NCBI RefSeq assembly: GCF_049974805.1
Contig: NZ_JBNGCO010000001.1
Coordinates: 23,502-87,501, forward strand
Length of the DNA stretch: 64,000 nucleotides
Source of the DNA: Baaleninema sp.
Lineage (GTDB): Bacteria; Cyanobacteriota; Cyanobacteriia; Cyanobacteriales; Geitlerinemataceae
Reading direction: 5' to 3'
The position numbers and the translations under genes were made by a program. The notes beneath the pieces are model-generated. The model saw only the letters and a program-made list of their open reading frames with translations, was not told the origin of the DNA and did not search any database. This document shows, piece after piece, positions 48,326 through 63,964 of the stretch (the first letter of the stretch is position 1; each line of letters starts with the position of its first letter).

Positions 48326-48351
48326 GAGTTTCGCAAGAGGGGGAGATGGAT

Positions 48352-48750
48352 TTAGGTTGGGGATTCTGAGGGGGTTAAGAGGACGACAATAAAGGGAGAA
48401 ATTGCTTCAGACAGCAATACCAATATCCAGAGATGTCCTTCCCAGAATCGATAATTTTCCAGTAGAGTCGCCCAGGAGTCTCCGGCGATGTAATGTCCGA
48501 AGACGAACTCGAAGAGGATGGTGAGTCCAACCCAGGTGGTGGCGGCGATAACGGCGGCTTTACGGGGGCGATCGCGATTTTGACGCATATATATCCACGC
48601 CATTGCGAAAATCCCCGTCACGATAACCACGACTTTGTACGGTTCTACCCAGGCTTCCCCGAATTGGGATAACACCCAGGTACTCCCGATGTAGCCGTTC
48701 GTCACCGCTAGAACGGCTAACGCACACCACAGTAAAAATGCAAGTCTCAT
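48352..48750 (-). CDS. Hypothetical 4-TM membrane protein embedded in the hyp operon
   Basis: The ORF opens at 48906 but that part overlaps hypB. The hydrophobic protein begins at the ATG at 48750 (MRLAFLLWCALAVLAV...), giving 132 aa. No family recognised. Confidence 0.6.
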   Translation of the reverse strand: MRLAFLLWCALAVLAVTNGYIGSTWVLSQFGEAWVEPYKVVVIVTGIFAMAWIYMRQNRDRPRKAAVIAATTWVGLTILFEFVFGHYIAGDSWATLLENYRFWEGHLWILVLLSEAISPFIVVLLTPSESPT

Positions 48751-48848
48751 AGTTGAGATGAGGTGTTGATGAGATGATGAGGTCGTTCTGACTTCGACCC
48801 GGTTTTCTGGCCGCGTCACACCCCCTACGACATCGCTAATTCTGGGCG

Positions 48849-49712
48849 CTACAACATCGCTAATTCTGGGGTTTGACTGACTTGGCGATCGAGGTAGTCG
48901 TACCACGCTTCTAAGCCTTCTCCTGTTCTCGCGGAAACTTCCAGGATTTGGGCTTGGGGGGCGACGCGACGGATGTTGTCGAGGGCGGTGTCGCGATCGA
49001 ATCCCACCACTTCGGCGATGTCGATTTTGTTCAATACCACCACATCGGCGGATTTGAACATTGTGGGATATTTCAGGGGTTTGTCTTCTCCTTCTGTCGT
49101 GGAAAGGAGGACGATGCGGCCGGTTTCCCCTAAGTCGTAAGCCGCCGGACAGACTAGGTTTCCGACGTTTTCGATAAAGAGCAGTTTCGCGCCCTCCAGG
49201 TTCAATTTGGCGACGGCGTTCGCCACCATGTTCGCTTCGAGGTGACAGACGTTTTCGGTGACGATTTGCACCACTTGCGCCCCGCTTTGTCGCAGTCGCT
49301 GGGCGTCGTTGTCGGTTTCGAGATCCCCGACGATTACGGCGGTCGGAATTCGCGATCGCAGTTCGGTTAAAGTCCGTTCGAGGAGGGCGGTTTTACCGGA
49401 ACCGGGAGAGGAAAGCAGGTTCAAAACGGCGAGGTTTTTCGCGGCGAAAAAGCCGCGATTCCGTTCGGCGAGGCGATCGTTTTTCGACAAAATCGCTTCG
49501 TGAATTTCTAGGGTATGGGTTCGATCGCCTTCGCTGTGATGGTGGTGATGTCCGTCGTGGTGATGGTGTTCGTCGTGATGATGATGATGTCCGTTGTGAT
49601 GGTGCTGATGGTGGTGTTCGTGGGCGCCTTCGTGGGCGTGAGACGGCGAACCTTCGGCGTCGAATATTTTTACGTTTCCTGGGGTCGTTGCACAGCCGCA
49701 ATTTTCACACAT
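48849..49712 (-). CDS. hypB: Hydrogenase nickel-incorporation GTPase HypB
   Basis: 287-aa ORF. His-rich N-terminal tract ([29 protein letters not shown]) and P-loop SSPGSGKT. Confidence 0.95.
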
Positions 49713-49719
49713 ACGCGAT

Positions 49720-50061
49720 TTATGAAACCTCCATCGACGACAGTTCTAGTTCTTTTCCGCTGATGACTTTCGAGACAATTTGATGACAGTTTGGACATTC
49801 AAAAATTATGTCTTCCGGTTGAAACTCCGTCTGACATTGGGGACAATGACATCGGGCGGGGATTTTTTCGATTTCAAAGCGGGCGTTTTGCGCCATCGTC
49901 CCCTCGGACACCACGTCAAAGGCAAAATTTAACGCTTCGGGAACGACGCCGGATAACACGCCAACGCGCATTTTCAATCGATGAATTGTGGTCGCACCGC
50001 TAGATTTAGCGCGATCGATCGCGATTTCTAGGGTACGCTCCATAAGGCCGACTTCGTGCAT
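49720..50061 (-). CDS. hypA: Hydrogenase nickel-insertion protein HypA
   Basis: 113-aa ORF. N-terminal MHE motif and zinc site CPQC...CPNC. Confidence 0.9.
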
Positions 50062-50411
50062 GGGATGTTTCGATCGAACAAACTAGCAGGAATGTTAACG
50101 AAACCCGATCGCACGGGAAGCCGTCGCTCTCTCTTAACTTGCCAGGTCGAGCGGACGAATCCGAGGTTTAACGGCAGATTAAATCTGAGTTAACACAAGG
50201 CCGTCCTCTTCAGTCCTACTATAAAAAACTTCGGCAAGGGTCGTAAGAATTTTTATAAAAACTATATGTTTCGCACGAAATTTCTTCGCTAATATAAGAA
50301 TGGAGGAGCAGACACTCATTGTTTTATCGCTAAAAATCGCGATATCCTTTTGTTCTGGCGTTCTCACTTCAAGTCTTTCTGACTCGCCCCGTTACAGTTT
50401 GCAACATTGTT

Positions 50412-51536
50412 ATGAAATTTGTCAGCGAGTACCGCGATCCGACGTTAGCCCAACACTACGCCGACGCCATCGCCGATTTGGTGACGCAACCCTGGACGAT
50501 TATGGAAATCTGCGGGGGACAAACCCACTCGATCGTCAAATACGGGATCGATCGCCTGTTACCGGAAACTGTTACCCTGGTTCACGGCCCCGGTTGTCCG
50601 GTATGCGTGACGCCCATCGAACTCATCGATCGCGCCATCGACATCGCCCGTCGCCCCGACGCCATTCTCTGTTCCTTTGGGGATATGTTGCGAGTTCCGG
50701 GTTCGGACACCGATCTCCTCAGCCTTAAAGCCCTGGGGGGACAAGTACAAATCGTCTATTCCCCCCTCGACATCCTCAACATCGCCCGCAAAAACCCCGA
50801 CAAAGAAGTAGTCTTTTTCGCCGTGGGCTTTGAAACCACCGCCCCCGCGACGGCGATGGCGGTATATCAAGCCGCCCAGCAGAACCTCACCAACGTCTCG
50901 TTACTGGTGTCTCACGTCTTGGTTCCCCCCGCGATGGAGACGATTCTCTCTTCCCCCAACTGTCGGGTTCAAGGGTTTTTAGCAGCGGGTCACGTTTGTA
51001 CGGTGATGGGCTATACCGAATACGAACCCATCGTCAAAAAGTACGAGATTCCCATCGTGGTCACGGGATTCGAGCCTGTAGACATTTTGCAGGGCATTTA
51101 TATGTGTTTGCAACAACTCGAACGCGGCCAGGCGAAATTGGAAAACCAATACACGCGATCGGTGTCTCGGGAAGGAAATCAACCCGCACAAAACTTGATT
51201 TCTCGGGTGTTTGAAGTGGTTCCCCGTCGCTGGCGAGGCTTGGGGGAAATTGCGCGAAGTGGTTTGGGTTTGAAAGCGGAATTCGCCGCCTTCGACGCCG
51301 ATCGCAAATTCGGTTTCGATACCCAGTCGGAAACGATCGAAACTGAAACCGACTGTATTAGCGGCGAGATTTTACAAGGGTTGAAAAAACCTCACAACTG
51401 TCCGGCGTTCGGAACTCACTGCACCCCAGAACGTCCCCTCGGTGCGCCGATGGTATCCTCAGAAGGGGCTTGCGCGGCCTATTACCGCTGGCGTGGAGAA
51501 GTGGAAAAACCTGAAGTCGTTTCGTCTGGTTCTTAG
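50412..51536 (+). CDS. hypD: Hydrogenase maturation protein HypD
   Basis: 374-aa [13 protein letters not shown]-terminus and the conserved CGG, GPGCPVC and GFETT motifs. Confidence 0.95.
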
Positions 51537-51655: not shown

Positions 51656-52525
51656 CTATAAATTTAACTTTAATTGAACGGCTGTTTCGTCTTTTTTTTG
51701 CGTCTCAAAACTCTCAAAAGCGGAATAATTGGTAATAAATAACTCTGCCCCTTTCTCTGCTTTTCCCTGTTTGTAATTGTTCATGCCATACTGAAGCTGC
51801 CATTCATAAAGATTGGCAAATTCAAAGTCTTGGCGAACCTCTTCGCAATCGTCGTAGGTAATTAACCAATTGTGAGAACAGGCTTTTAAATCCTTTGCAA
51901 AACGTTGGTGGTCGAAATTGGCGTGTAACGCGCCTCGTTTTCCATAGAGTTTAGATTTTGTGGCGGTAAAATAGGGCGGATCGAGGAAAATCAAGACATT
52001 TCGACCGGGTTTTTTGAGTAATTCGCTGTAATCTAAGTTGGTGATTTTGACGTTTTTTAAGACGCTTTTTAGCTGCGACAAACGGGCGATTGAAGAGTCT
52101 GTAAAACGTTCCTCAAATGACTTTTGAGAATAGCCTCCCGCTTCGATGGTTCCGGAAAAGGTGATGCGATTTAAGACGAAAAAGCGAACGGCTCGATCGA
52201 CCTCCGATAATTCCTCAACATCTACGTTCGCCAGTTCCTCGAATAATTCCCGTCCGTCTTGACGATTGGCTTTGATATCTCGCACTTTTTCCACCAATTC
52301 GGGAAGTTGTGACTGTGCAGCTTTCCAAAAACAGTATACTTCTGGATTGAGGTCGTTAATCCAAACGGGAATTTGAGGATACAAGCGTTTGAATTCAATA
52401 AATACGGAACCGCCTCCGACAAACGGCTCGCGAAATTCCTCGATTTGAGGGGGAAATTTGGCAAAAATGCGGCGGAGTGCGCGGGATTTTCCGCCGGGAT
52501 AGCGTAGGGGACTGCGAAGGTTCAT
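51656..52525 (-). CDS. Dam-type N6-adenine DNA methyltransferase (D12 class), solitary
   Basis: RYPGGKS N-terminal motif, FVGGGS SAM motif, catalytic DPPY (IFLDPPYF). The ORF can extend to a GTG at 52540. The gene is visibly more AT-rich than its neighbours, and no endonuclease gene is adjacent. Confidence 0.88.
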   Translation of the reverse strand: MNLRSPLRYPGGKSRALRRIFAKFPPQIEEFREPFVGGGSVFIEFKRLYPQIPVWINDLNPEVYCFWKAAQSQLPELVEKVRDIKANRQDGRELFEELANVDVEELSEVDRAVRFFVLNRITFSGTIEAGGYSQKSFEERFTDSSIARLSQLKSVLKNVKITNLDYSELLKKPGRNVLIFLDPPYFTATKSKLYGKRGALHANFDHQRFAKDLKACSHNWLITYDDCEEVRQDFEFANLYEWQLQYGMNNYKQGKAEKGAELFITNYSAFESFETQKKDETAVQLKLNL

Positions 52526-52751
52526 GGGGGAGTTCACCACAGAGACACAGAGGACATAGAGAAAATAACAAGACTCATTTTGTCAAGGGTTTGTTAGGTT
52601 TTTTAAAATAAAAGCAATGGAATCTCTAGAGAGGTCTGAAAAACGGGTTTTATTGTAACGAATTTGCCAGAGAGATCTGACGGAGACCGCGACCTGATAT
52701 AGTAGTCGAATAGAAAACTTTCAAGTCGTTCGTTAGAATTCGGGGTTATCC

Positions 52752-53528
52752 GTGGCGATCGTAGCAATTGCCAGTCCGAAAGGTGGCGTCGGAAAAACCA
52801 CGTCCGCTATTGCACTCGCGGGGTTGCTGGCCGAAAAGCAATCCTGTTTGGCTGTCGATCTCGACCCGCAGGGAAACCTGACGATGGGGTTGGGAGTGGA
52901 ACTCGCACCGGACCAAATCGGGAGTTACGACGTGATGACGCAGCAACTCGATGCGGAAGAACCCATCGTGGATACCGACTGCGGCGTCGATCTCATCCCC
53001 ACAGACAGCACTCTCGCGGAAGCGGAAAAGGAAATTTCCGACGACCCCGATCGCTTCTTCGTCCTCAAACGACAACTCGACCCCCTCAAAGCCAAGTATC
53101 GAACCATCCTCATCGACTGTCCTCCCAACATGGGACTGTTGACCCTCAACGCCTTAGCCGCCGCCGATGCGGTGTTGGTTCCGGTACAGTGTCAGTTCTT
53201 CTCGCTTCGGGGACTCGATCGACTCCTCGAGGAAATTTCGCAAATTCGCAGCCAGTACAACCTACGGCTTCGCCTGCTGGGGGTTCTCCCCACGATGGCG
53301 GAAAATACCATCATCACGCGCAAAGTGCTGCGGGAACTCAAAGACCGTCACAAGCAGGTTAGCGTGTTTTACCCAGTCCCCAAATCCGTCAAGTTCGCCG
53401 AAGCCAGCTTCGTCGGGAAACCCATCCACCGCTACACGAAAAACCAAAAACTGGTGAAGCCTTACGAACGGGTGATGCGATCGATCGTCCCGCGATCGAA
53501 AAACGCTCCCAAAGAATATCTATTATAG
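52752..53528 (+). CDS. ParA/MinD-family ATPase (orphan, no parB)
   Basis: 258-aa ORF, GTG start. Deviant Walker A SPKGGVGKTT and Walker B ILIDCPP. Confidence 0.9.
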   Translation: MAIVAIASPKGGVGKTTSAIALAGLLAEKQSCLAVDLDPQGNLTMGLGVELAPDQIGSYDVMTQQLDAEEPIVDTDCGVDLIPTDSTLAEAEKEISDDPDRFFVLKRQLDPLKAKYRTILIDCPPNMGLLTLNALAAADAVLVPVQCQFFSLRGLDRLLEEISQIRSQYNLRLRLLGVLPTMAENTIITRKVLRELKDRHKQVSVFYPVPKSVKFAEASFVGKPIHRYTKNQKLVKPYERVMRSIVPRSKNAPKEYLL

Positions 53529-53545: not shown

Positions 53546-56500
53546 CTATTCTAGAAAATCGTCCGAGACCTCCTCTTCAGGGTCGCAGTCCTGGCTAAAG
53601 TGGAATCGATCGAGAATTCCATCGCAGAGATGACGATCGCTGTGACTGAGTTCCGGCGAGTATTTCAAATAGTTTTCAATGCGGCGACAGCCCACCTCCA
53701 GAACCCGATCGAACGAGATCGCCTCCTCCAAATTCCACAAAATCGCCGTTCGATCGTCCGATCCCGAGGCTAAAAATTTCCCGTCCGGCGAAAACGCCAA
53801 GGCCAACACCGTACTCTTGTGTTCGAGGAACGTCGCCACAGGCGTCCCGTCCCAGCGCCAGAGTTTCACCACTCCGTCGTCGCCTCCCGTGGCCAACAAC
53901 GCCCCGTCAAAACGGGTGGCGATCGACCAAATTCCCTTCTCATGGGCCTCTTCGATGGCGCGAATGAGTTTTCCTTCCCGGTTCCAAATCAGTATTCGGC
54001 CGTCGTCCGACACCGACGCGAGTCGGTCTCCCTCGGGATGCCACACCACATCGAAGACGATGGAACGATGACCCATCAACACCCGTTGAAACCTGCCGTC
54101 TCGCGACCAAATCCGCACCGTGGAATCGCCACTTCCGGCGGCGAGAAGTTCCCCGTCCGGCGACCAAGACACCCCCCAAACCCCCGCTTTATGTCCTTTC
54201 AAGATAGTGATCGCTTCGCCTTCTTGCGTCCACAAGCGAACCGTCTTATCGCTACTGGTCGAGGCGAGAATTCGACCGTCCGGGGAAAATTCCACATCCC
54301 GCACGTCCGCTTGATGGGCTGACCAAGATCGAATTTCCCGTCCCTCCGGAGTCGCCAAGACGATGGCGTTTCCACTTTGGGCGGCGGCGATTACCTGGCC
54401 GTCGGGACTGATATCGAGGCGGCCGTAAAGGGGAAAATTCCTAGCGAACTGACCGATCGAAGTGCCGTCGATCGATCGTAAAGCGAGAGTCCCCGCATCG
54501 AGAACGGCGAAAGCTTGACTTTTCGGGCAGAACTCAACTCCCGTGACGCTGCTTCCCTGTTCCCTCAACGGAAGCATCAGTGGGTTGTACAGTCGAAACA
54601 TGCGACTGACGTCGTTCCAAGCGGCGGTGGCAAATTCCTCGCCGTCGGGACTGAACACGATATCCATAATTTTGCCGCCGTATCCTGCGATGCGATTGAG
54701 TAGAATTCCCTCTTCCACAGACCAAAACTTGACGACTTTGGTATCAGACCCCGACAACAGCATTTGACTGTCGGGACTGAACGTCACCGCCCAAATTCCG
54801 GCATTGTCGGCGATTATGGTTTGTCTGAGGGTTCCATCTCCGTTCCACAGACGTACTGTTCCGTCCCCGAACCCCGCCGCCATCTTCTGTCCGTCAGGAC
54901 TGAACGCTACAGACAGGGCGGGAACCTCGGCTTGGAAAAGCACTCGGTCTAAGATGCCGTCTAACCGCCACAGAGCCACCGTTCCGTCTTCGTTGGCGGT
55001 GAGGACGGCGGTGCCGTCGGGACTGAAGACGGCTTTGCGCACGGTTCCCCCCTGTTGGAGGGTGGCCAGCAGGGTTCCGTCCTGTCGCCAGATGCGGGCG
55101 GTTCGATCGAGACTGGCCGACAGGAGTAAGGTTCCGTCGGGACTAAATTCGACGCTGTAAATGGGGGCTTGGTGTCCGGTGAAGGTACGAATTAGGGTGC
55201 CGTCCCGCCGCCAGAGTTTGAGGGTGGCGTCACCGCTGGCGGTGGCGATGGTTTGGCTGTCCGGACTGACGCTGACCCCGAGAACGGGGCCTTGATGTGA
55301 GGTCAACTGGTGCAGCGGTTTTCCGTCCCGTCCTTGAACTTGCAGGCCCCTATCGCTGACAAACACCATATATTCGCCGTCGGGACTGTAATCGATGCCG
55401 TTGAAGCCGATTCCTGCGGCTAAATGGTTGGTTTCCAGGGAACCGTAGACCGCCTGACGGATGGTGTGTTCGACCATTGCTTGGGTTTTGGCATCGGCGG
55501 TTCGATCGAGCTGTTGCAAGTGCTGGCGGGCCCGCAGGGCGTTAATTTGAGCCTCGAGTTGTCGGTCTAAGGTAAACAGGGCGTTGGAATATCGCGCCAG
55601 TTGGCGAATTGCGCCGATGCGTTCGTTGTACTGACTTTCGGAAACTTGGCGGTAGGCGGACAATAATGCCAGACTCAGCAGGGTGACGATGGTTAAGGCG
55701 GAGGTGAGAAGTACGATAAAGATCTGTTGGCGTCGCGCTGTCTCTTGTTTGAGTTCGCATTGTTGGCGTTCGGCCATGAGTTTGTCTTCGATCGCCCGCG
55801 TCCGTTCGGCTTCTAAGGCTTGTTGGGTTTCCCGGCGATCGACCCCATCGCTGGCGGCGAGAAATTGATAGTCGAGGCTGCTGAGGTTTTTTCCGCTGAC
55901 CCAGGTTTTGGCGTCGGCGAGGGCTTGTCCCCGCAACAGGCGCGATTCGTCTTGAAACTGAGATTTTTCCCAGGCGGTGAGGGCTTCGGCGTAGGGACGC
56001 AACCGTTTGAGTTGTTTTTCGACCCAGAATCGATCGAACACTTGGCGATAGATGGGGTTTTTTATCTGTAGTTGTCCCTCTTCTTTAATCACTAATCCCG
56101 ACAGCAGCAGTTCCAGTTGTTCGCGGCTGTCGTCGCTGGGAATCTCTACCCCATTGAGGAGGCTTTGGTACAGTCCCAGCAAGCGGCCGGCGCGGTTTTC
56201 GTCGTACAGCAGGCGATCGCGCAGGGTTCGCAGGTGGGGCGGTTCGTCTTGGCTGTCCCAACGTTCGATAACTCGCGATCGCACTAAGTCGTTTACCCAA
56301 TCGATTTCTTTGTCCGGACAAATGGAAATCTGTTCGACTTCCCGAACTGCCAGTTGACAGAGTTTTTGGGTTAAAAACGGCTGTCCGTTCGTCCAGGCGA
56401 GGATTTGTCGAAACACCGCCTCGGGAGATTCAAACCATCCGTTCAATCCTTTGAGTAACGGTTGTCCGCTGTCGAAATTCAACGGTTTTAGGTCGATGGC

Positions 56501-57118
56501 GGTGCCGATATTGAACGGTGTCCGGGTTCGATCGACGATAAGATCCGACGGTGCTGCCACGCCGAAAATGGCGAAGTGCAACCGTCGGTATTCGGAATTG
56601 ACAGCTTGTTGGTTGTAACAAAAGCGAATCCAGGCGAACAGGTCGTCTGTGGAAAAGTCCAGGCTGAGAACGCTGTCGATTTCGTCGAAAAAAATCGCCA
56701 AATGTTGGTCGGGAAACTGAGGTAATAATAAATCCTCGACGAACTGACTCAGGGAATGGAGCGGCGTGAGTCCTTCTACCTCCGACCACCACTGTTTCAA
56801 GTTGAAGCGACCGAACAGCCCCAACCCCCGCACCAACTCCACGATAATGCTTTTGTACCACTGTTTCGGCGTCAGGTTATGGCTGCCGATGCGGGTCATA
56901 TCGAGGCTGGTGCAGCGAAAGCCGTCTTGCTGCAAGCGATGGCGAGTTCGTACCAGTAGGGAGGATTTCCCCACCTGACGGCAGTTGAGAACGTAACAAA
57001 ATTCCCCGCCATGCAGGGCTTGGTACAACTGGCGATCGGCATCCCGTTCCACGTAGGTGGCCGTCTCGATTCCCAGGCTCCCGCCAACTTGATAGTCTGT
57101 TTGCGCCTTCGCCATCAA
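53546..57118 (-). CDS. AAA_35/STAND-like ATPase - coiled coil - TM helix - about 14 WD40 repeats
   Basis: 1190-aa ORF. Walker A CRQVGKSS, Walker B AIFFDEID, TPFNIG sensor-like motif. Hydrophobic helix IFIVLLTSALTIVTLLSLALLSAY. Then repeated ...SPDG..(L/I)A(S/T)...D.T(V/A)(K/R)LW units. Confidence 0.9.
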   Translation of the reverse strand: MMAKAQTDYQVGGSLGIETATYVERDADRQLYQALHGGEFCYVLNCRQVGKSSLLVRTRHRLQQDGFRCTSLDMTRIGSHNLTPKQWYKSIIVELVRGLGLFGRFNLKQWWSEVEGLTPLHSLSQFVEDLLLPQFPDQHLAIFFDEIDSVLSLDFSTDDLFAWIRFCYNQQAVNSEYRRLHFAIFGVAAPSDLIVDRTRTPFNIGTAIDLKPLNFDSGQPLLKGLNGWFESPEAVFRQILAWTNGQPFLTQKLCQLAVREVEQISICPDKEIDWVNDLVRSRVIERWDSQDEPPHLRTLRDRLLYDENRAGRLLGLYQSLLNGVEIPSDDSREQLELLLSGLVIKEEGQLQIKNPIYRQVFDRFWVEKQLKRLRPYAEALTAWEKSQFQDESRLLRGQALADAKTWVSGKNLSSLDYQFLAASDGVDRRETQQALEAERTRAIEDKLMAERQQCELKQETARRQQIFIVLLTSALTIVTLLSLALLSAYRQVSESQYNERIGAIRQLARYSNALFTLDRQLEAQINALRARQHLQQLDRTADAKTQAMVEHTIRQAVYGSLETNHLAAGIGFNGIDYSPDGEYMVFVSDRGLQVQGRDGKPLHQLTSHQGPVLGVSVSPDSQTIATASGDATLKLWRRDGTLIRTFTGHQAPIYSVEFSPDGTLLLSASLDRTARIWRQDGTLLATLQQGGTVRKAVFSPDGTAVLTANEDGTVALWRLDGILDRVLFQAEVPALSVAFSPDGQKMAAGFGDGTVRLWNGDGTLRQTIIADNAGIWAVTFSPDSQMLLSGSDTKVVKFWSVEEGILLNRIAGYGGKIMDIVFSPDGEEFATAAWNDVSRMFRLYNPLMLPLREQGSSVTGVEFCPKSQAFAVLDAGTLALRSIDGTSIGQFARNFPLYGRLDISPDGQVIAAAQSGNAIVLATPEGREIRSWSAHQADVRDVEFSPDGRILASTSSDKTVRLWTQEGEAITILKGHKAGVWGVSWSPDGELLAAGSGDSTVRIWSRDGRFQRVLMGHRSIVFDVVWHPEGDRLASVSDDGRILIWNREGKLIRAIEEAHEKGIWSIATRFDGALLATGGDDGVVKLWRWDGTPVATFLEHKSTVLALAFSPDGKFLASGSDDRTAILWNLEEAISFDRVLEVGCRRIENYLKYSPELSHSDRHLCDGILDRFHFSQDCDPEEEVSDDFLE

Positions 57119-57185
57119 GGAACTCCGATCGGGTTATTGCTTTTTTTGGTGAAATATGATATAATTTAATGTTAGCCCAAAAACG

Positions 57186-59249
57186 TCAATATCGATCGCG
57201 ATGGCTAGAAGAAGCATCCGATCGATCGCCGAAGGAATCGCCACTGGCGGTCTCGTCAGCTTCCCAACCAAAGCGATGGCTGTTGCTGAGGGTGACGCGA
57301 TCGCGTCCGTTTTGTTTCGACTCGTACAACGCCACATCCGCCGCTTCCTGAATGTTGGCGGGTTCGGCTGTTTCGTCGGGGACGATGCTGGCAACGCCCA
57401 CGCTGACGGTCATCGTCGTGCGATGGTTCCGCCCGCCCTCGCCCCGTGGAATGCTTAACCTCCGAATCTCCTGACAAATCTTTTCAGCCATTGCCATGGC
57501 CGCTTTGGCGTCAGTATTCAACAGCAACACGAGAAATTCCTCGCCGCCGTAGCGAGCCACGACCCGGTCGTGAGTCCAGTCTCCGGTGACGCTAACGATT
57601 CCCAAGGCCACCTGCTGCAAACAAATATCTCCGAGAGGATGACCGTAGGTATCGTTATAAGATTTAAAAAAGTCGATATCGCAGGAGAGGATCGACAAGG
57701 ATTGTCCGTTGGCGCTAGATTCTTGCCAAGCGTCTTCTAAGCGTAAGTCGAAATAGCGTCGGTTGGGAATTTGCGTGAGTTCGTCGATATAACAGAGTTG
57801 TTGCAGGGTTTGATTTTCCCGTTCCAAGGCTATGAGTCGATCGCCCACCATAGAGGTATTGAAGGTCTTGTCCGGTAAGCAGGCGAAGGGACTCGATTGG
57901 CTCTGTTGGGACAAGCGAGAACTCTCGTAAATTTGCAGCCGCTCTTGAAAATACTGGCGGTACAGATGAGAACTGAGAACCACGGTGTTTCCTTGAAACT
58001 TCACCAGTCCCAGGCTGTCGAGTTTGTAGGCCAAGGCGGGTTCGAGTTCCACGCCTTCAGGGGAGCGCAAGACGAGGGCTAGGGCTTTCAACAACAGGGG
58101 TTGTTCTTGGAGGATATGCCACAGTTGTTGTAGATAATTGCGGTAAATCCCGCTGAGGGTGGAGGCTTCTGCTAAAAGTCGATCGAGGTCTTTTTCGCTT
58201 TGGTGTAGGTGGTACAGTGCTAGAGATACGAGATAAGGATGACCCCCTACCATCTCCACGATTTTCCGAGCGGGTCGATCGTCACTCCAATGTAACCCGT
58301 ACCGCTGGGCTAAGTCGCAGACGCGATCGATAGTGAACGGCGGCAACACCACGGGCAGCCCCACGTTAAAGGGGGATTGGTTGATGTCGAGGGGAACGTA
58401 GACTTCTGTGGAGTGAACCACCACCAGCCGCAGTTTCTGCCAAGTTTCCACCTGTTTGGCTTCTTCATGCCACGATCGCAACATGGGTAGGAATTCTTGA
58501 GCCACTTCGGGAAACTCGAACAGGCGGTTGACTTCTTGCAGGGCTAAGATGAGGGGTCGATCGATGGTCTCGAGAACGCAATGCTGCATATAAAGGGTAC
58601 AGCTAACCTTCGAGCCGATATCGTCGTCCCAAACCTCATGGAGGGGACTCGAGAGATGTAACATTTGCTTGAGATTGGCGCAAAACCAGCGCAGCAATTT
58701 GTTTAAATCCCCTAAAACATAGGTTTCAGCCCGTTGGAAATCCAGGGTGACGGTGGCATATCCCGATTCTTTACCGTGGTGGAGCAGTCGCAGCAGCAGC
58801 GAACTTTTTCCCATGCGCCGACTGCCGCGAACGCGAACGGCACAGCCGGGTTTGTGCAGTTCTTGTTGGGTCAGGCGTTCGATGGGCGGTCGTTCGACGT
58901 ACAGGGGCGAATTTAAGGGTACCGGAGCGCCGGGATATTCGATTTCGGGGCTTGGGTGGATGGGTCGATCGCTCAATTCGTCGAGCAGCAGACGTTCCTG
59001 GGAGGTTAGCGATCGCGGCTCTAGAATGGCGCGGAAGTTGGCTTTGGAAATCGACTCGTCAAAGACTTCCGATAGGGTTCGCCACAGTTGAGACGCGACG
59101 TTTCGCAAATAGTGAGCGTCGTATCCTAGCTCGGCTTCCATGCGGGTATAGGTAGCCCCTTTCCACGATTGGCGCAGTACGCTTTCCTGAACCGGAGACA
59201 TGGTTTCGCCAATGGCACGAACGAGTTCGACGATCTCGTCAATAGTCAT
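57186..59249 (-). CDS. HTH-like N-domain - AAA_35/STAND-like ATPase - coiled coil - GGDEF diguanylate cyclase
   Basis: 687-aa ORF. N-terminal LuxR/sigma-r4-like helix pattern, Walker A GSRRMGKSS, Walker-B position LILALQEV (Gln where Asp is expected), SPFNVG. C-terminal GGDEF with intact RYGGEEF and DIDFFKSYND. Confidence 0.9.
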   Translation of the reverse strand: MTIDEIVELVRAIGETMSPVQESVLRQSWKGATYTRMEAELGYDAHYLRNVASQLWRTLSEVFDESISKANFRAILEPRSLTSQERLLLDELSDRPIHPSPEIEYPGAPVPLNSPLYVERPPIERLTQQELHKPGCAVRVRGSRRMGKSSLLLRLLHHGKESGYATVTLDFQRAETYVLGDLNKLLRWFCANLKQMLHLSSPLHEVWDDDIGSKVSCTLYMQHCVLETIDRPLILALQEVNRLFEFPEVAQEFLPMLRSWHEEAKQVETWQKLRLVVVHSTEVYVPLDINQSPFNVGLPVVLPPFTIDRVCDLAQRYGLHWSDDRPARKIVEMVGGHPYLVSLALYHLHQSEKDLDRLLAEASTLSGIYRNYLQQLWHILQEQPLLLKALALVLRSPEGVELEPALAYKLDSLGLVKFQGNTVVLSSHLYRQYFQERLQIYESSRLSQQSQSSPFACLPDKTFNTSMVGDRLIALERENQTLQQLCYIDELTQIPNRRYFDLRLEDAWQESSANGQSLSILSCDIDFFKSYNDTYGHPLGDICLQQVALGIVSVTGDWTHDRVVARYGGEEFLVLLLNTDAKAAMAMAEKICQEIRRLSIPRGEGGRNHRTTMTVSVGVASIVPDETAEPANIQEAADVALYESKQNGRDRVTLSNSHRFGWEADETASGDSFGDRSDASSSHRDRY

Positions 59250-59681
59250 GTGACACTGAAAAAAAAGTAAGCGAACAGCGGACGGGAAACGAAAAGTTAT
59301 CTAAAATTGCCTCGAGTTACCTGAGTTCGCCAATATAACCAATGCGGTCTAGGATCGGCAATTGAATAGATCGCGAGGCTCCCCAACCATTGTAACCAAA
59401 CCCTGTGACCGAAGTCACTGACTGAACGGCGCTACTTATGTATCGAGGTTTATGGCGGTTCGGAAAAAGAGTGATTTTTTGTCACTTGACAGTTCCGGGT
59501 TAGTTTGATGTATTGGAACCACTTCGTAAGGTAACAAATTTTATTATCAAGTTTTAAATATCTTAAATGACTCGAAACATATGGCGATGGCTTCCCAGTC
59601 AACTGGAATTTTCTGCATATAATCGATAAGACGACTTTTGGATTGGGGATTCCCAAAAGCGAAATCTTGGGAACAAAGGAT

Positions 59682-62186
59682 ATGTCAGGATATGCCCATG
59701 CAGTTGTCGGTCAACTTCGTGAAGTACTCGATCGTGTTGAAGACGCCTTGGGAGGCTTGGCCGACGGGATTGCTTGGACGGACGAAACGGGACGAGTTCA
59801 GTGGTGCAACCTACGCTTCGCCCAGTTAGTCGGTCGGCCGCGTTCGGAACTTTGCTCGATCGATGTTGTTAAATTATTTCCTCTCGAACGGGATAGAACT
59901 TGCCAAAAGTTCCCCCAACATCCCTTTCGTTTGGCTCTAACAGGTTCGAACTATACCCGGCAAGTTTATCGCAGTCGAGACCCGAACGGTCGTTCGGGTC
60001 TCCTCGAAGTGTTTTATATCGTCTTATCCATCGTTTCTCCCCGGCGGAACGTCCTGTTAGTGATGCGAGAATTGAACTCGCGGTTCCAGGAGCCGGGAGA
60101 GCCAAAGTTAGAAAACGCTGACATTTCCACCCTGTACCAGCTCCTCGCCGACCATTCCACCGATTGGATTTCCCGCCAGACCTCCGACGGCGTGTTTCTT
60201 TACACCTCGCCAGCGGGACAGCGGTTGCTCGGTTACAATCCCGATCGGTCGATCGGTCGCTCGGCCTTCGAGCTGTACCATCCCAGCGACATCGACAAAC
60301 TGCGTCGCGTGTACGAAGAAGTGGTTCGCCATCCCGAAACCCCCATCTCCCTCGCCCACCGCATCCGCCACCAAAACGAATATTACCTCTGGTTCGAGAC
60401 CACCTTCAACGCCGTTCGATCGCCCCAAGGAGAAGTCACGCAGGAAATCGTCACCGTCTCCCGAGATGTGACCGATCGACTCTCCTATCAAACCACTCTG
60501 CAACGAAACGAAAAACGCTTTCGCGCCCTCATCGAAAACGTCACCGACGCCATTTTTATTTTTGACGCTCGAGGAAAGTTACGCTACGCCAGTCCCTCCG
60601 CCGAAAAACTCCTCGGCTACGCCAGCGAGAAATATCTCGGACAGTTCCCGTTTCAATTCCTCGAAAAACGGGAAATTCCCCAGGTCAAACGGGCGTTCTA
60701 CAAAGCCAGACGCTTCCCGGGACAGTGCGAAATCCTCAAAGAATTCACCATTTACCACGCCGACGGAACCCCCCTCATCTTCGAGGCCGCGATTACCAAT
60801 CTCCTCTCGGAACCCGCCCTCGAAGGGATCGTCGTCAACTGTCACAACATCACCGAACGCAAACAGGCGGAAGTACAACTGCGTCACGACGCCCTTCACG
60901 ACCCCTTGACGGGACTTCCCAATCGCACTCTGTTCATGGAACGGCTGTCTCAAGCTATCGCCGAAAAACAACGACAGCAGACTTATAAATTCGCCGTTCT
61001 CTATCTCGATCTCGATCGATTTAAATCTATTAACGACAGTTTGGGACATCTGGCCGGCGATCGACTGTTAATCGAAGTGGCCAAACGCCTCAAATCCCTA
61101 GTTCGTCAAAACGACACAGTGGCGCGACTCAGCGGCGACGAATTCGCCATCTTGCTCCAAGATATGATTGACGACTCCAACGCGCAACTGCTGGCCGATC
61201 GCTTACAAACCGCCTTACAAGACCCCCTAGAACTGGAATATCAAGAAGTCTTCGTCACCGCCAGCATCGGTATCGTCCTCGCCGACGACCTCTATCAAAC
61301 TCCTTCCGACATCCTGCGCGACGCCGATACCGCCATGTATCGCGCCAAGCAACTGGGAAAAGCCCGTCAAGAAACTTTCGACATCACCATGTCGAAGAAC
61401 AACCTCAAACAGCTTCGTTTGGGGGTGGATTTGCGCCACGCCCTCGATCGCAACGAGTTAGAACCGTTCTATCAACCCATCGTCTCTCTTAAAACAGGAC
61501 GAATCAGCGGTTTCGAGGTGTTGTTGCGTTGGAATCACGACGAATTCGGCCGCGTCTCCCCGGACGAGTTCATCCCCATTGCCGAAGAAACCGGCGCCAT
61601 CGTTCCTTTAGGATGGTGGGTTCTCTCACGAGCCTGTCATCAAATGAAACGCTGGCGCAAACAGTTCCCTACGCGACGGCTGATGGTGTGCGTGAATCTC
61701 TCCGGACGCCAGTTTTCCCAGCCTTCCATCGTCGAACGAGTCGAACAAGCCTTAAAAGTCACTCATCTCGACCCCTGTTATTTGAAATTAGAAATCACTG
61801 AAACCACCATCGTCGAAAACGAAGCCACAGTAATGAATACGCTACAGCGGCTCAAAAAAATGGGGGTCAAGTTGAGTATCGACGACTTCGGAACCGGGTA
61901 TTCCTCGTTATCTCGCCTGCGCAATTTCCCCATCGATACTCTGAAAATCGATAAGTCCTTCGTTCAAACTATGGAACGCGATCGTGGCAATCTCGCCATT
62001 ACCAAGTCGATCGTCATGTTAGCGGAAACCCTAGACATCTCCACCGTCGCCGAAGGCGTCGAAATCCCCGAACACCTCCACCAACTCCGACAACTCGGCT
62101 GCGAATATGCCCAAGGCTATCTCTTTTCCCGTCCCGTCAACGCCGAACAAGCCAGCGAGTTGATTGCTGATAATCCGCAGTGGTAA
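59682..62186 (+). CDS. PAS-PAS-PAS-GGDEF-EAL signalling protein (degenerate SGDEF; EVL-type phosphodiesterase)
   Basis: The ORF opens at a TTG at 59643; the ATG at 59682 is preceded by aaagga. It has PAS modules, the GGDEF-domain motif RLSGDEFAIL, and EAL-domain motifs EVLLRW, DDFGTGYSS, KIDKSF and EGVE. Confidence 0.9.
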   Translation: MSGYAHAVVGQLREVLDRVEDALGGLADGIAWTDETGRVQWCNLRFAQLVGRPRSELCSIDVVKLFPLERDRTCQKFPQHPFRLALTGSNYTRQVYRSRDPNGRSGLLEVFYIVLSIVSPRRNVLLVMRELNSRFQEPGEPKLENADISTLYQLLADHSTDWISRQTSDGVFLYTSPAGQRLLGYNPDRSIGRSAFELYHPSDIDKLRRVYEEVVRHPETPISLAHRIRHQNEYYLWFETTFNAVRSPQGEVTQEIVTVSRDVTDRLSYQTTLQRNEKRFRALIENVTDAIFIFDARGKLRYASPSAEKLLGYASEKYLGQFPFQFLEKREIPQVKRAFYKARRFPGQCEILKEFTIYHADGTPLIFEAAITNLLSEPALEGIVVNCHNITERKQAEVQLRHDALHDPLTGLPNRTLFMERLSQAIAEKQRQQTYKFAVLYLDLDRFKSINDSLGHLAGDRLLIEVAKRLKSLVRQNDTVARLSGDEFAILLQDMIDDSNAQLLADRLQTALQDPLELEYQEVFVTASIGIVLADDLYQTPSDILRDADTAMYRAKQLGKARQETFDITMSKNNLKQLRLGVDLRHALDRNELEPFYQPIVSLKTGRISGFEVLLRWNHDEFGRVSPDEFIPIAEETGAIVPLGWWVLSRACHQMKRWRKQFPTRRLMVCVNLSGRQFSQPSIVERVEQALKVTHLDPCYLKLEITETTIVENEATVMNTLQRLKKMGVKLSIDDFGTGYSSLSRLRNFPIDTLKIDKSFVQTMERDRGNLAITKSIVMLAETLDISTVAEGVEIPEHLHQLRQLGCEYAQGYLFSRPVNAEQASELIADNPQW

Positions 62187-62290
62187 CGGAGATGATGGGA
62201 TGGGGAGATGATGGGGTGATGGGGTGATGGGTAGGGTGCGTGACTTGAAAAATCGGGTGTCGCCATGAAACCGAGAAATCGTCACGAACC
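62186..62290. repeat. Dispersed hairpin element, copy B, preceded by a GATGGGG array
   Basis: ggagatgatgggatggggagatgatggggtgatggggtgatgggtagggtgcgtgacttgaaaaatcgggtgtcg...gtcacgaacc. The stem ggtgcgtgac/gtcacgaacc overlaps the GH3 stop codon. Confidence 0.75.
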
Positions 62291-63964
62291 GCTGCTAATC
62301 TCAACATCTTCCAAGAGCGGTAAATCGGCGAGAAACTGACGGTCTTCGCTGATGTGGGGAAATTTTAATTGGGAGTCGGGAATGCCTTTTTTCACTTGAC
62401 GCTGGCGTAGAATGTCGTAACTTCCCGGTTTTAGGATTCGCAGGCGCGGCGGTGGAATGTCGCTGCGGCGAGAAATGGCGTAATGGGTGTTTTCTTCCCC
62501 TAACCTTTCGTCGAACCGCTTTAAAAAGGCTTCGGGATTCTCCAACTTCTCCCCCGGCGCCAGTTCGATATTGACTAGATATCGCGCTGGAAAGTCGTTT
62601 TCCGATAAGGTCAAGCAAAAGTCTTCGAGACGCACGCCGAATTCTTCTTGTAAGCTGTCCATGACTCGCGTGGCGTGGTCTTCGGTGGTTTTTTCGGTGG
62701 TGGCGGAAATTAATCCCCCGGCCCGGTGTTTGAAGACGATGAGCGGCGCTTGGTTGTAGAATCCTACTACTTCCACCACGTCGCCGATGTCGTAGCGGAA
62801 GAAGCCGCCGTAGCTGCTGAGGAGGATGCGATAGCATTTTCCGGCTTCGACTTCCCTCGGAAGCAGGGTTTCCGGCTGGTCGAGGTGCCATTGTTCTTCG
62901 GGGATAAACTCGAAAAATCCGGTTTCGATGGATAATATACTGCCGTCGGTGTCTACGTCGGGGTAAATGCTGAAGGTGCCTTCGGCGGAGGAAAATACAG
63001 CCCCGAAAATTGGCCGGTCGCCGAAGTATTCGGGAAAACGGCGGAAGTAGAAATCTGAGGTTCCCCCTCGCGCGGCGGTGACGAATAGGGAATCGGGCCA
63101 GGCGGATTTGGGGGTGAGGCGTCCTTCGGTTTTCAGGATGTGGCGCAGTTCGGCGGCTCGATCGATATCGGCGTCCCACTTGGATTCGAGTTGTTGTCGC
63201 AGCTGGGGTTCGAGGTTCAGCCAGTCGGCGATCGATCCGGTTTCGATATCCCGCACCATCTCTTCGCCGTATCGATCGAGATAGTTGCAAATTCGTAAAA
63301 TCAACATGGGGAAGTTGGCGACGATTCCCCGGGTGGTTCGATCGCGCAGCGCAAACAAAATCGCCAGGTAATGACGCGCCACGCTGTCAGCCACCAACAG
63401 CGTTTCAAACGGGTTAGAAAAGATAGTATTGTAAAGCCGTTTGTCCATCCGCATTACGCCGACGCTGGCGGGTCCGAACTCGATGCCGCCCTCCGTTTCT
63501 CCCCAAATTAAGGCGGAATTCGTCAGTAAAATCTTACCAAATTCTAACCCCCGACGCTGTAAGCCCCGCGTTAAAAAGCCGAGACTGGTCAAATTGGCGC
63601 GACGCAGCACGCTTTGAGACTTGCGACTGGTGGGAATCAGTTTTTTCTTACCTGTCGAGCCGCTGGTCAAGGTTAGATAAACCACCGGATCGGGAAGTAA
63701 AACGTTCGGTTCTCCCTTGGCGATTCGATCGATATAGGGTTCGTAACTTTTATACGGCAGAATCGGCATTTTTTGCCGAAATTCCGCCAGAGTTTTAATA
63801 TCTTTAAACCCGTAATCTTTACCGAATTCAGTATTTTGATACTCCCTTAAGAGTTTCAATAAAAACTGTTTTTGAAATTGTTCTAAGTCACGAGTTTTTT
63901 GAACGAATCGTTCTCGCGAAAACCCCGTTACAACGTTCAACAAAGACAACGCAAAGTTGGACAT
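62282..63964 (-). CDS. GH3-family acyl-acid amido synthetase-like protein (adenylate-forming)
   Basis: 560-aa ORF. N-terminal pattern FQKQFLLKLLREYQNTEFGKDYGF...YLTLTSGSTGKKKLIPTS is typical of bacterial GH3 auxin-responsive-promoter family proteins. Confidence 0.85.
   Translation of the reverse strand: MSNFALSLLNVVTGFSRERFVQKTRDLEQFQKQFLLKLLREYQNTEFGKDYGFKDIKTLAEFRQKMPILPYKSYEPYIDRIAKGEPNVLLPDPVVYLTLTSGSTGKKKLIPTSRKSQSVLRRANLTSLGFLTRGLQRRGLEFGKILLTNSALIWGETEGGIEFGPASVGVMRMDKRLYNTIFSNPFETLLVADSVARHYLAILFALRDRTTRGIVANFPMLILRICNYLDRYGEEMVRDIETGSIADWLNLEPQLRQQLESKWDADIDRAAELRHILKTEGRLTPKSAWPDSLFVTAARGGTSDFYFRRFPEYFGDRPIFGAVFSSAEGTFSIYPDVDTDGSILSIETGFFEFIPEEQWHLDQPETLLPREVEAGKCYRILLSSYGGFFRYDIGDVVEVVGFYNQAPLIVFKHRAGGLISATTEKTTEDHATRVMDSLQEEFGVRLEDFCLTLSENDFPARYLVNIELAPGEKLENPEAFLKRFDERLGEENTHYAISRRSDIPPPRLRILKPGSYDILRQRQVKKGIPDSQLKFPHISEDRQFLADLPLLEDVEISSGS

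Follow-up and report, generated by a model that had tools for sequence, protein, structure and literature searches.

A conserved pair of AAA_35 ATPase genes in Baaleninema, one coding for a GGDEF protein and the other for a predicted transmembrane WD40 protein

Two adjacent AAA_35 genes in Baaleninema sp.

Baaleninema is a filamentous cyanobacterium of the Oscillatoriales. We analysed a 64,000-nt stretch of the Baaleninema sp. contig NZ_JBNGCO010000001.1 (positions 23,502 to 87,501; hereafter the window), in which two neighbouring genes of the reverse strand, called A and B here, code for proteins built around an AAA_35 ATPase module (PF14516). Protein A joins this module to a helix-turn-helix (HTH) domain and a GGDEF domain, protein B to a predicted transmembrane (TM) helix and a WD40 array. 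Genes of the B type recur directly downstream of genes of the A type, on the same strand, far more often than chance would have it (see below). A sequence-only reading of the window had placed the two genes 67 nt apart on one strand. Both open reading frames (ORFs) are indeed intact, and the gap measures 67 nt when counted to the TTG at 57118, the earliest start of B. The ATG at 57115, which GGAG precedes 9 nt upstream, is more likely to be the start and widens the gap to 70 nt. The stop codon of A occupies 57186-57188, and a scan of the spacer found no terminator-like site between the genes. Protein A is 100% identical to the NCBI Baaleninema sp. protein P0001. The features of the pair, in window positions, are the following.

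57186..59249 (−): gene A, 687 aa, HTH_VMAP-M9, A-type AAA_35, stalk helix and GGDEF (intact ORF, Pfam, precomputed PF26355)
58965..59249 (−): N-terminal HTH domain, residues ~1-95, with LuxR/sigma-r4-like helices (PF26355 HTH_VMAP-M9)
57942..58934 (−): A-type AAA_35 module, residues 106-436 (Pfam AAA_35, 456.4 bits, model positions 2-331)
58803-58826 (−): Walker A of A, G142-S149 (sequence)
58533-58550 (−): degenerate Walker B of A, ILALQE, residues 234-239 (sequence)
57795..57851 (−): stalk helix ahead of GGDEF, residues 467-485 (predicted, AlphaFold2 model)
57297..57791 (−): GGDEF diguanylate cyclase domain, residues 487-651 (Pfam, 150 bits; TIGR00254, 141 bits)
57534-57548 (−): GGEEF motif, residues 568-572 (sequence)
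57119..57185 (−): A-B spacer, AT-rich (sequence, promoter/terminator scan)
53546..57118 (−): gene B, 1190 aa, B-type AAA_35, long helix, TM helix, 14 WD40 blades and conserved tail (intact ORF, Pfam)
55829..57082 (−): B-type AAA_35 module with conserved B-specific extension, residues 13-430 (Pfam, alignment invariants)
56963-56986 (−): Walker A of B, CRQVGKSS (sequence)
56681-56698 (−): Walker B of B, AIFFDE, a hhhhDE motif (sequence)
55724..55879 (−): charged, coiled-coil-like helical segment, residues ~414-465, continuous with the TM helix (model, sequence)
55658..55723 (−): single TM helix, residues 466-487, predicted N-in/C-out (KD19 = 2.5)
53699..55426 (−): 14 WD40 blades with SPDG motifs (Pfam WD40, 343 bits; blade register)
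53621..53641 (−): C-terminal tail motif SDRHLCD, residues 1160-1166 (conserved in B-type proteins)

Both proteins exceed the AAA_35 gathering threshold of 27 bits over nearly the full model. The match of B (88.5 bits, residues 13-361, model positions 4-329) is typical of the B-type proteins, a diverged AAA_35 subfamily whose other members score 69-122 bits. A direct BLASTP comparison of A with B aligned 257 residues at 24% identity (E = 3e-10) and covered the Walker A, Walker B, (S/T)PFN(I/V)G and GxP motifs, thereby bearing out the shared ATPase module described earlier. GK[ST]S is present in both proteins; A further carries SPFNVG and GGHPYL, and B TPFNIG and GQPFL. Since the two modules share only 24% identity, the split between the A and B types appears to be ancient. 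Of the two forms in the earlier hhhh(D/Q)E consensus, B has the canonical D-E; A reads Q-E and is better called degenerate, its Asp being lost. Among 104 A-type sequences, GK is found in all (104/104) and the Walker B Glu in 98, and the Asp position reads N (63 sequences), D (32) or Q (4, the residue of the window protein), so that 72 of the 104 have N, Q or another residue in place of Asp. In contrast, DE and GKSS are present in 47/47 B-type sequences. By analogy, this asymmetry would match that of known heteromeric ORC/STAND assemblies. The module had also been called rare, which proved wrong: a profile of the N-terminal region of B (AAA_35 and helical mid-region) detected 10,846 representatives of 50%-identity clusters (E ≤ 1e-3), the diverged A-type module included.

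No AAA_35 relative came up when the PDB was searched by sequence. We compared AlphaFold2 models with solved structures using Foldseek. As full-length A (mean predicted local distance difference test score, pLDDT, 82.6) mostly returned GGDEF matches, the fold class was assigned from the model of the B N-terminus (pLDDT 75.7). This model matched 2fna, 2qen, ORC2 (1w5t), human and fly ORC/Cdc6, NRC3, Roq1, RPP1 and Avs3 with a probability of 1.0; a difference in domain orientation keeps the TM-scores low (0.2-0.35). The first ATPase match of A was PAB2304 (2qen). Together with SSO1545 (2fna), this archaeal Arch_ATPase is the closest solved fold to both AAA_35 modules (14-16% identity); both are single-domain proteins, and their PDB entry titles give no function. 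According to these models, AAA_35 belongs to the ORC/Cdc6-STAND clade of AAA+ ATPases, with a predicted GxP helical domain and winged helix. The label "STAND-like" given to the module earlier is therefore fair. No profile match to a classical STAND clade (NB-ARC/AP-ATPase, NACHT, SWACOS, MalT, MNS) was found: neither A nor B has an NB-ARC, NACHT or MalT-type match in Pfam or NCBIfam, and relatives give only weak, overlapping AAA_22, AAA_14, NPHP3_N and ATPase_2 matches.

The N-terminal HTH-like domain and the C-terminal diguanylate cyclase proposed for A were both recovered. HTH_VMAP-M9 is a precomputed annotation on P0001 and on orthologues of A, the helices span residues 19-29, 34-41 and 45-63 in the model, and W29, L55 and W56 are invariant in the family alignment; a homology search with the 93-residue HTH alone gave no matches. 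Within the GGDEF domain, the metal- and GTP-binding residues D524, D526, N532 and K645 are invariant in the family and D541 and R649 nearly so. Judged by its motifs, this domain should be an active diguanylate cyclase, and WspR and PleD are its nearest solved relatives. An in-register RxxD inhibitory site (I-site), present in some orthologues, is absent from the sequence of the window protein. Foldseek further matched A to the coiled-coil and GGDEF structures 3i5c and 6ttr. A hydropathy scan found no TM segment in A, which is predicted to be a soluble effector subunit.

Protein B is predicted to be a membrane receptor or anchor subunit, and homologues with its architecture are abundant. The coiled coil, hydrophobic helix and roughly 14 WD40 repeats of the sequence-only reading all stood up to analysis. 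In the AlphaFold2 model a single continuous helix (residues 414-516) crosses the membrane and could plausibly act as a signalling rod. No hydrophobic segment other than residues 466-487 was found in B. Nearly all B-type proteins have a TM helix at the equivalent position, ~60 residues past the ATPase module, and the flanking Lys and Arg residues average 5.0 on its N-terminal side versus 2.4 on its C-terminal side (N-terminal side richer in 29/34, in keeping with the positive-inside rule). A regular expression retrieved 13 blades with a period of ~41 residues and a 14th was located at residue ~1068, the array spanning residues ~565-1140; the repeats have the marks of a WD40 beta-propeller, and 14 blades suffice for two 7-bladed propellers. 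Since the ATPase needs cytoplasmic ATP and a single TM helix intervenes, the array is most likely periplasmic or lumenal, a placement missing from the earlier account. The SPDG-type blades and a weak TolB propeller match fit this placement. CHASE2 and peptidoglycan-binding domains, which are extracytoplasmic domain types, fill the post-TM slot in B-type paralogues. The tail motif SDRHLCD precedes the C-terminus of B-type proteins by ~10-30 residues whether WD40 repeats are present or not, and also occurs at loci L005, L086, L090, L097 and L115.

Recurrence of the A-then-B pairing

We defined the pairing as an A-type gene whose immediate downstream neighbour, in the same orientation and across a short spacer, is a B-type gene; this is the arrangement of the window pair (A then B, spacer of 67-70 nt). 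Loci were fetched with A-type sequence patterns (80 genome and 80 metagenome loci); the first genome scan was diluted by GGDEF-only matches, and the metagenome scan used an alignment without GGDEF. Every ORF at the fetched loci was classified by BLAST against the domains of A and B. A B-type gene on the same strand and -200 to +300 nt from an A-type gene was counted as adjacent downstream, and a Poisson test compared the count with the number expected given how densely other B-type ORFs occur in these flanks. In about 100 non-redundant cyanobacterial loci, a B-type gene lay directly downstream of 24 of the 104 A-type modules (24 of 103 when counted as ORFs), compared to 0.45 expected (P = 4e-33). 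The A-then-B pairing is thus real and statistically robust, and not due to chance. By architecture of the A-type gene, the loci divide as follows.

HTH-AAA_35: 21 with an adjacent B-type gene, 30 without
HTH-AAA_35-GGDEF: 4 with an adjacent B-type gene, 20 without
AAA_35-GGDEF without HTH: 2 with an adjacent B-type gene plus 2 truncated cases, 4 without

Adjacency extends well beyond the genus and into different flanks, and the first ground for refutation named in the sequence-only reading, a lack of conserved adjacency in related genomes, therefore falls away. GGDEF-bearing A genes adjoin a B-type gene in about 10 independent lineages, B being directly downstream in nine of them, and the flanking genes differ. 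In Lusitaniella coriacea (L086; 47% identity), an HTH-AAA_35-GGDEF gene overlaps by 4 nt a 1177-aa AAA_35-TM-WD40 gene, and the pair sits among entirely different neighbours from those of the window pair. Further GGDEF-A/B pairs were found at L008, L010, L016, L022, L030 and L140. In B. simplex PCC 7105 (L081; A 78% identical) the entire neighbourhood is syntenic, which is weak evidence as the genus is the same. We also looked from the side of B, starting from four B proteins of named genomes irrespective of context, and found an A-type gene immediately upstream of three: AAA_35-GGDEF then B-WD40 with an 11-nt gap in Crinalium PCC 9333, AAA_35-GGDEF then a short B with a 62-nt gap in Mastigocladopsis repens, and HTH-AAA_35 then a short B with a 70-nt gap in Calothrix NIES-2100. 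The fourth, from an 8.3-Mb genome, is a solo B. A mobilizable Crinalium plasmid carries an A-then-B pair. Finally, in 22 pairs the distances between A modules track those between B modules (matrix correlation r = 0.76, a value reached by 0/2000 Mantel permutations). This correlation shows that A and B are inherited as a unit, and contact between them is not implied.

Two loci carry weak hints of a defence or toxin-antitoxin setting: the Lusitaniella pair (L086, 2122-5246) lies near AIPR, Uma2 and RHH_5 genes, and a HigB toxin gene (8234-8467) adjoins the pair at the Crinalium locus L168.

In the window, a gene coding for a PAS-PAS-GGDEF(SGDEF)-EAL(EVL) protein (59643..62186, plus strand; ORF, synteny) diverges from A across a 393-nt AT-rich spacer with several promoter-like matches. 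It likely codes for a phosphodiesterase, judging from its domains, and adjoins A in B. simplex (81% identity) and in the cyanobacterium SID2 (67% identity) as well. Together, A and this gene have the appearance of a make/break gene pair for cyclic di-GMP (c-di-GMP). Hydrogenase maturation genes flank the pair at 45965-51536, namely hypF (−), a His-rich hypB (−), hypA (−) and hypD (+), with a 184-aa ORF between hypF and hypB that we take, from the look of its sequence, to code for a membrane protein. They are followed at 51656-53528 by a Dam-like D12 methyltransferase gene (−) and a ParA/CbiA-like ATPase gene (+) convergent on B, both of which have a place beside the pair in B. simplex PCC 7105 as well. 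At 62282-63964 (−) lies a gene of the GH3 auxin-responsive-promoter family (acyl-amido synthetase-like), which is likewise near the pair in B. simplex. An Rfam scan of the whole window found no riboswitch or other RNA family.

Domain partition within the family and known systems

A Pfam scan covered all A- and B-type ORFs with an unexplained extension except those at L013 and L148, which were taken as homologues of the one at L011. The architectures found were the following.

B-type, TM and WD40: the archetype, most top representatives being 1150-1240 aa
B-type, TM and CHASE2: L019, L162
B-type, TM, GUN4 and three peptidoglycan-binding domains: Nostoc HK-01 plasmid
Pkinase-AAA_16-TPR-GAF(-PAS) giants with a C-terminal B-type AAA_35: L011, L147, L157
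B-type with GAF: L150; with REC-PAS: L118; with PAS: P0125
Short B-type, ~520 aa, ending just past the TM helix
A-type with HTH_VMAP-M9 or an XRE-type HTH
A-type with GGDEF
A-type with a class III cyclase (Guanylate_cyc): L030
A-type with CHAT: L024; with CHAT-TIR: Nostoc HK-01 plasmid

No input domain on an A-type protein and no output domain on a B-type protein was found among the scanned sample. Such a strict partition, with inputs on B and outputs on A, is a prediction of a split sensor/effector design. The split sensor/effector pair suggested by the sequence-only reading is upheld in this respect. It does not hold as a constant coupling, which is facultative in the GGDEF-bearing orthologue group because most close orthologues of A have no adjacent B.

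Several loci depart from the simple pair. Arrays at L005, L090/L092 and L097 consist of one HTH-A gene followed by two or three B-WD40 paralogues, and at L030 a single short B gene comes first, with the genes for A-Guanylate_cyc and A-GGDEF proteins behind it. Proteins P0121, P0124 and P0128 have two B-type modules followed by a TM helix, and P0052, P0064 and P0110 an XRE-type HTH followed by two A-type modules. The giants (~1950 aa; L011, L013, L147, L148, L157) are followed on the same strand by an HTH-A-type gene at L011 and L013 (147 and 440 nt) and L148 (1.2 kb); at L147 and L157 this gene is 2.6-3.5 kb off, upstream of the giant or on the opposite strand. On Nostoc sp. HK-01 plasmid1 (L172, 175459-181165), a gene for B-type AAA_35, TM, GUN4 and three PG_binding domains lies downstream of a CHAT-TIR-A-type AAA_35 gene; the two are preceded by a caspase-FGE gene and flanked by type II and type III restriction genes. 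From its domains, L172 would be a cell-death-type version of the A/B pair.

Several known systems were considered as the identity of the pair and rejected. The VMAP ternary system links a MoxR AAA+ protein, a vWA protein and a VMAP-C-containing protein (Kaur et al. 2020); only HTH_VMAP-M9 is shared with it, and no MoxR, vWA or VMAP-C gene was found at 48-64 kb of the window or in the syntenic loci. The EACC1 system (Kaur 2020) was likewise discarded. No known anti-phage system fits either, as no family of PADLOC-DB v2 was matched by A or by the N-terminal 573 residues of B. A two-component phosphorelay is unsuitable, since neither A nor B has a HisKA/HATPase_c or REC domain, and A is not the Anabaena cyclase All2874/CdgS, which serves CdgK as response regulator in a two-component system (PMC13075795).

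Likenesses to other systems are partial. The MalT, AfsR/SARP and GutR types are described as bacterial STAND signal-transduction ATPases (Leipe et al. 2004, as related in PMC8195603). These proteins resemble the pair in their ORC/Cdc6-STAND-type nucleotide-binding domain, GxP helical domain, winged helix, repeat-type sensors and HTH outputs, and nucleotide-dependent oligomerisation is their switch. They carry sensor and effector on one chain, whereas the pair splits them over two AAA_35 paralogues, one of them membrane-spanning. The nSTAND2 two-gene operon codes for paired STAND NTPases, one with eroded motifs, with a predicted hetero-multimeric ring and variable effectors (Kaur, Iyer, Burroughs and Aravind 2021, PMC8195603). 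As in the pair, two bacterial genes have products built on a common STAND-type module; unlike the pair, it is a mobile conflict system of another NTPase family with GT4 and HEPN effectors, and no transmembrane receptor subunit, c-di-GMP or HTH output is described for it (PMC8195603). Two-component c-di-GMP systems (WspE/WspR, PleC-DivJ/PleD, Anabaena CdgK/CdgS) combine a membrane or multi-domain sensor with a cognate soluble GGDEF or HTH partner encoded in one operon. Their likeness to the pair is one of logic only, in the interchangeable inputs and outputs: the A/B pair has no HisKA, HATPase or REC domain, and its coupling would be NTP-dependent assembly rather than phosphotransfer. Antiviral Avs/bNACHT STAND proteins resemble B in their STAND-clade fold and C-terminal repeat sensors, and Avs3 (8dgc) was a Foldseek match; unlike the pair, they sense in the cytosol as single chains and carry a nuclease or another toxic effector.

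In eukaryotes, paired NLRs (RGA4/RGA5, RRS1/RPS4 and the NRC network of plants, NAIP/NLRC4 of animals) are linked STAND paralogues that split sensor and executor roles and hetero-oligomerise, one partner often having degenerate nucleotide-binding motifs. The NRC3 structure was among the Foldseek matches of the B N-terminus. Unlike the window pair, NLR pairs are eukaryotic and cytosolic, have a cell-death output and are mostly encoded head to head.

No published function for AAA_35 (PF14516) and no description of the A/B pairing was found in the literature, nor is the pairing mentioned under these names in the Aravind-lab surveys in which VMAP-M domains and related systems are defined. No AAA domain is named in the abbreviation list of the Fig 1A legend covering 16 Anabaena c-di-GMP proteins (PMC13075795), and Agostoni 2013 lists no ATPase partner domain of GGDEF (PMC3747582).

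Proposed signalling and its alternatives

On balance, and with moderate confidence, we favour the explanation that B is a transmembrane receptor or anchor ATPase whose cytoplasmic AAA_35 module controls the assembly of A and hence c-di-GMP synthesis. The pair would be a variant of a widespread cyanobacterial two-protein signalling cassette made of two anciently diverged AAA_35 subfamilies. In single-pass B, the canonical AAA_35 module would lie in the cytoplasm, and the double propeller would bind a ligand or envelope component in the periplasm or thylakoid lumen. The long membrane-crossing helix could relay a change at the propeller and so shift the nucleotide or oligomeric state of the B module, which, through AAA_35-AAA_35 contacts, would recruit, template or release soluble A. 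GGDEF domains work as dimers, often driven by helical stalks; assembly of A may thus align its stalk helices and dimerise its GGDEF domains, leading to c-di-GMP. Lacking an I-site, the window protein would be free of product feedback. The N-terminal HTH may provide a second, DNA-binding output, and in Baaleninema and SID2 the opposing activity would come from the divergent PAS-GGDEF-EAL gene. We infer the topology of B, the direct contact between A and B, the direction of signalling and the activation of the cyclase by proximity.

A broader proposal, which we advance tentatively and regard as possible rather than probable, is that A/B pairs constitute a cyanobacteria-wide mode of two-protein signal transduction by nucleotide-dependent hetero-assembly of paralogous STAND-like ATPases, comparable in its logic with histidine-kinase/response-regulator systems. 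B-type proteins would then be transmitters with interchangeable inputs and A-type proteins receivers with interchangeable outputs, and the window pair would be the variant that turns an extracytoplasmic signal into c-di-GMP.

Several observations weigh against the explanation that we favour. About 20 of the 24 non-redundant HTH-AAA_35-GGDEF loci have no adjacent B, among them that of Gloeothece PCC 7424, where A is solo; A is evidently able to work without a linked B. In SID2 (A 66% identical), A and the PAS-GGDEF-EAL gene are kept although B is absent, a convergent protein kinase gene standing in its place. Many B partners are short and have no post-TM sensor domain, so the core role of B may be anchoring. 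A-B fusions were sought as Rosetta-stone evidence and none was found, only homotypic A-A and B-B fusions. The correlation between distance matrices can be explained by co-inheritance alone, and a weak promoter-like match in the spacer region overlaps the stop codon of A. In addition, sampling relied on A-type patterns, and metagenome contigs are possibly phylogenetically redundant.

In one alternative, which we consider unlikely, B, like an anti-sigma factor, anchors inactive A at the membrane until a signal or ATP hydrolysis by B frees it to bind DNA through its HTH and to make c-di-GMP. Many B partners being tail-anchored or extending only ~40 residues past the TM helix would suit such sequestration, as would the HTH being the commonest A-type output and the Walker B being canonical and putatively hydrolytic in B and mostly degenerate in the A type. 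However, the long forms of B bear obvious sensors (WD40, CHASE2, peptidoglycan-binding, GAF/PAS), and activation by recruitment and by release look alike in the present evidence.

It is less probable still that A and B are independent paralogues, each homo-oligomerising and signalling alone, with their adjacency a relic of tandem duplication or a matter of co-regulation. The homotypic fusions, the preponderance of solo HTH-AAA_35-GGDEF orthologues and the loss of B from SID2, with A and the divergent phosphodiesterase gene kept, favour such independence. Yet, despite the ancient split, the genes hold the same order and strand at a tight spacing in different taxonomic orders, on plasmids and between unrelated flanks, and the strict partition of inputs and outputs is hard to account for without functional coupling.

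The least probable account is an NLR-like conflict or defence system in which c-di-GMP from A would serve as an alarm, or as a signal for growth arrest, once B had sensed an invader or damage to the envelope. The fold with its Avs3 and NLR matches, the HTH domain common to A and VMAP conflict proteins, the CHAT-bearing relatives with the CHAT-TIR A-type protein encoded beside a caspase-FGE gene and restriction enzymes, the Lusitaniella neighbours and the tandem arrays of B-WD40 paralogues, which resemble receptor diversification, speak for it, and the link to conflict systems drawn earlier survives for the CHAT and TIR members beside restriction genes. It does not extend to the window pair, which has no PADLOC match, no defence-island context (its neighbours are hyp genes, ParA, GH3 and PAS-GGDEF-EAL), regulatory outputs and a sensor predicted outside the cytoplasm, the B type being joined also to ordinary signalling inputs (REC, PAS, GAF, CHASE2).

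AAA_35 proteins are abundant in filamentous cyanobacteria, with more than 10,000 clusters at 50% identity, and the receptor explanation that we favour, if true, would account for a large block of genes annotated as "AAA-like domain-containing" and "WD40 repeat". It would also provide a new c-di-GMP input in cyanobacteria, in which an extracytoplasmic beta-propeller receptor acts via an ATPase switch and not a kinase, and a bacterial counterpart of the plant and animal NLR pairs in which a sensor works with a helper. Genetically tractable strains that carry A/B pairs include Crinalium PCC 9333, Mastigocladopsis repens and Calothrix NIES-2100. In some genomes, CHAT and TIR effectors on the AAA_35 platform would bring signalling and cell-death-type outputs onto one scaffold. 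Taken together, these data suggest a form of paired STAND-like ATPases in which sensor and effector are separate paralogues and the sensor is a predicted membrane receptor, and hint at a signalling scheme common to the whole family.

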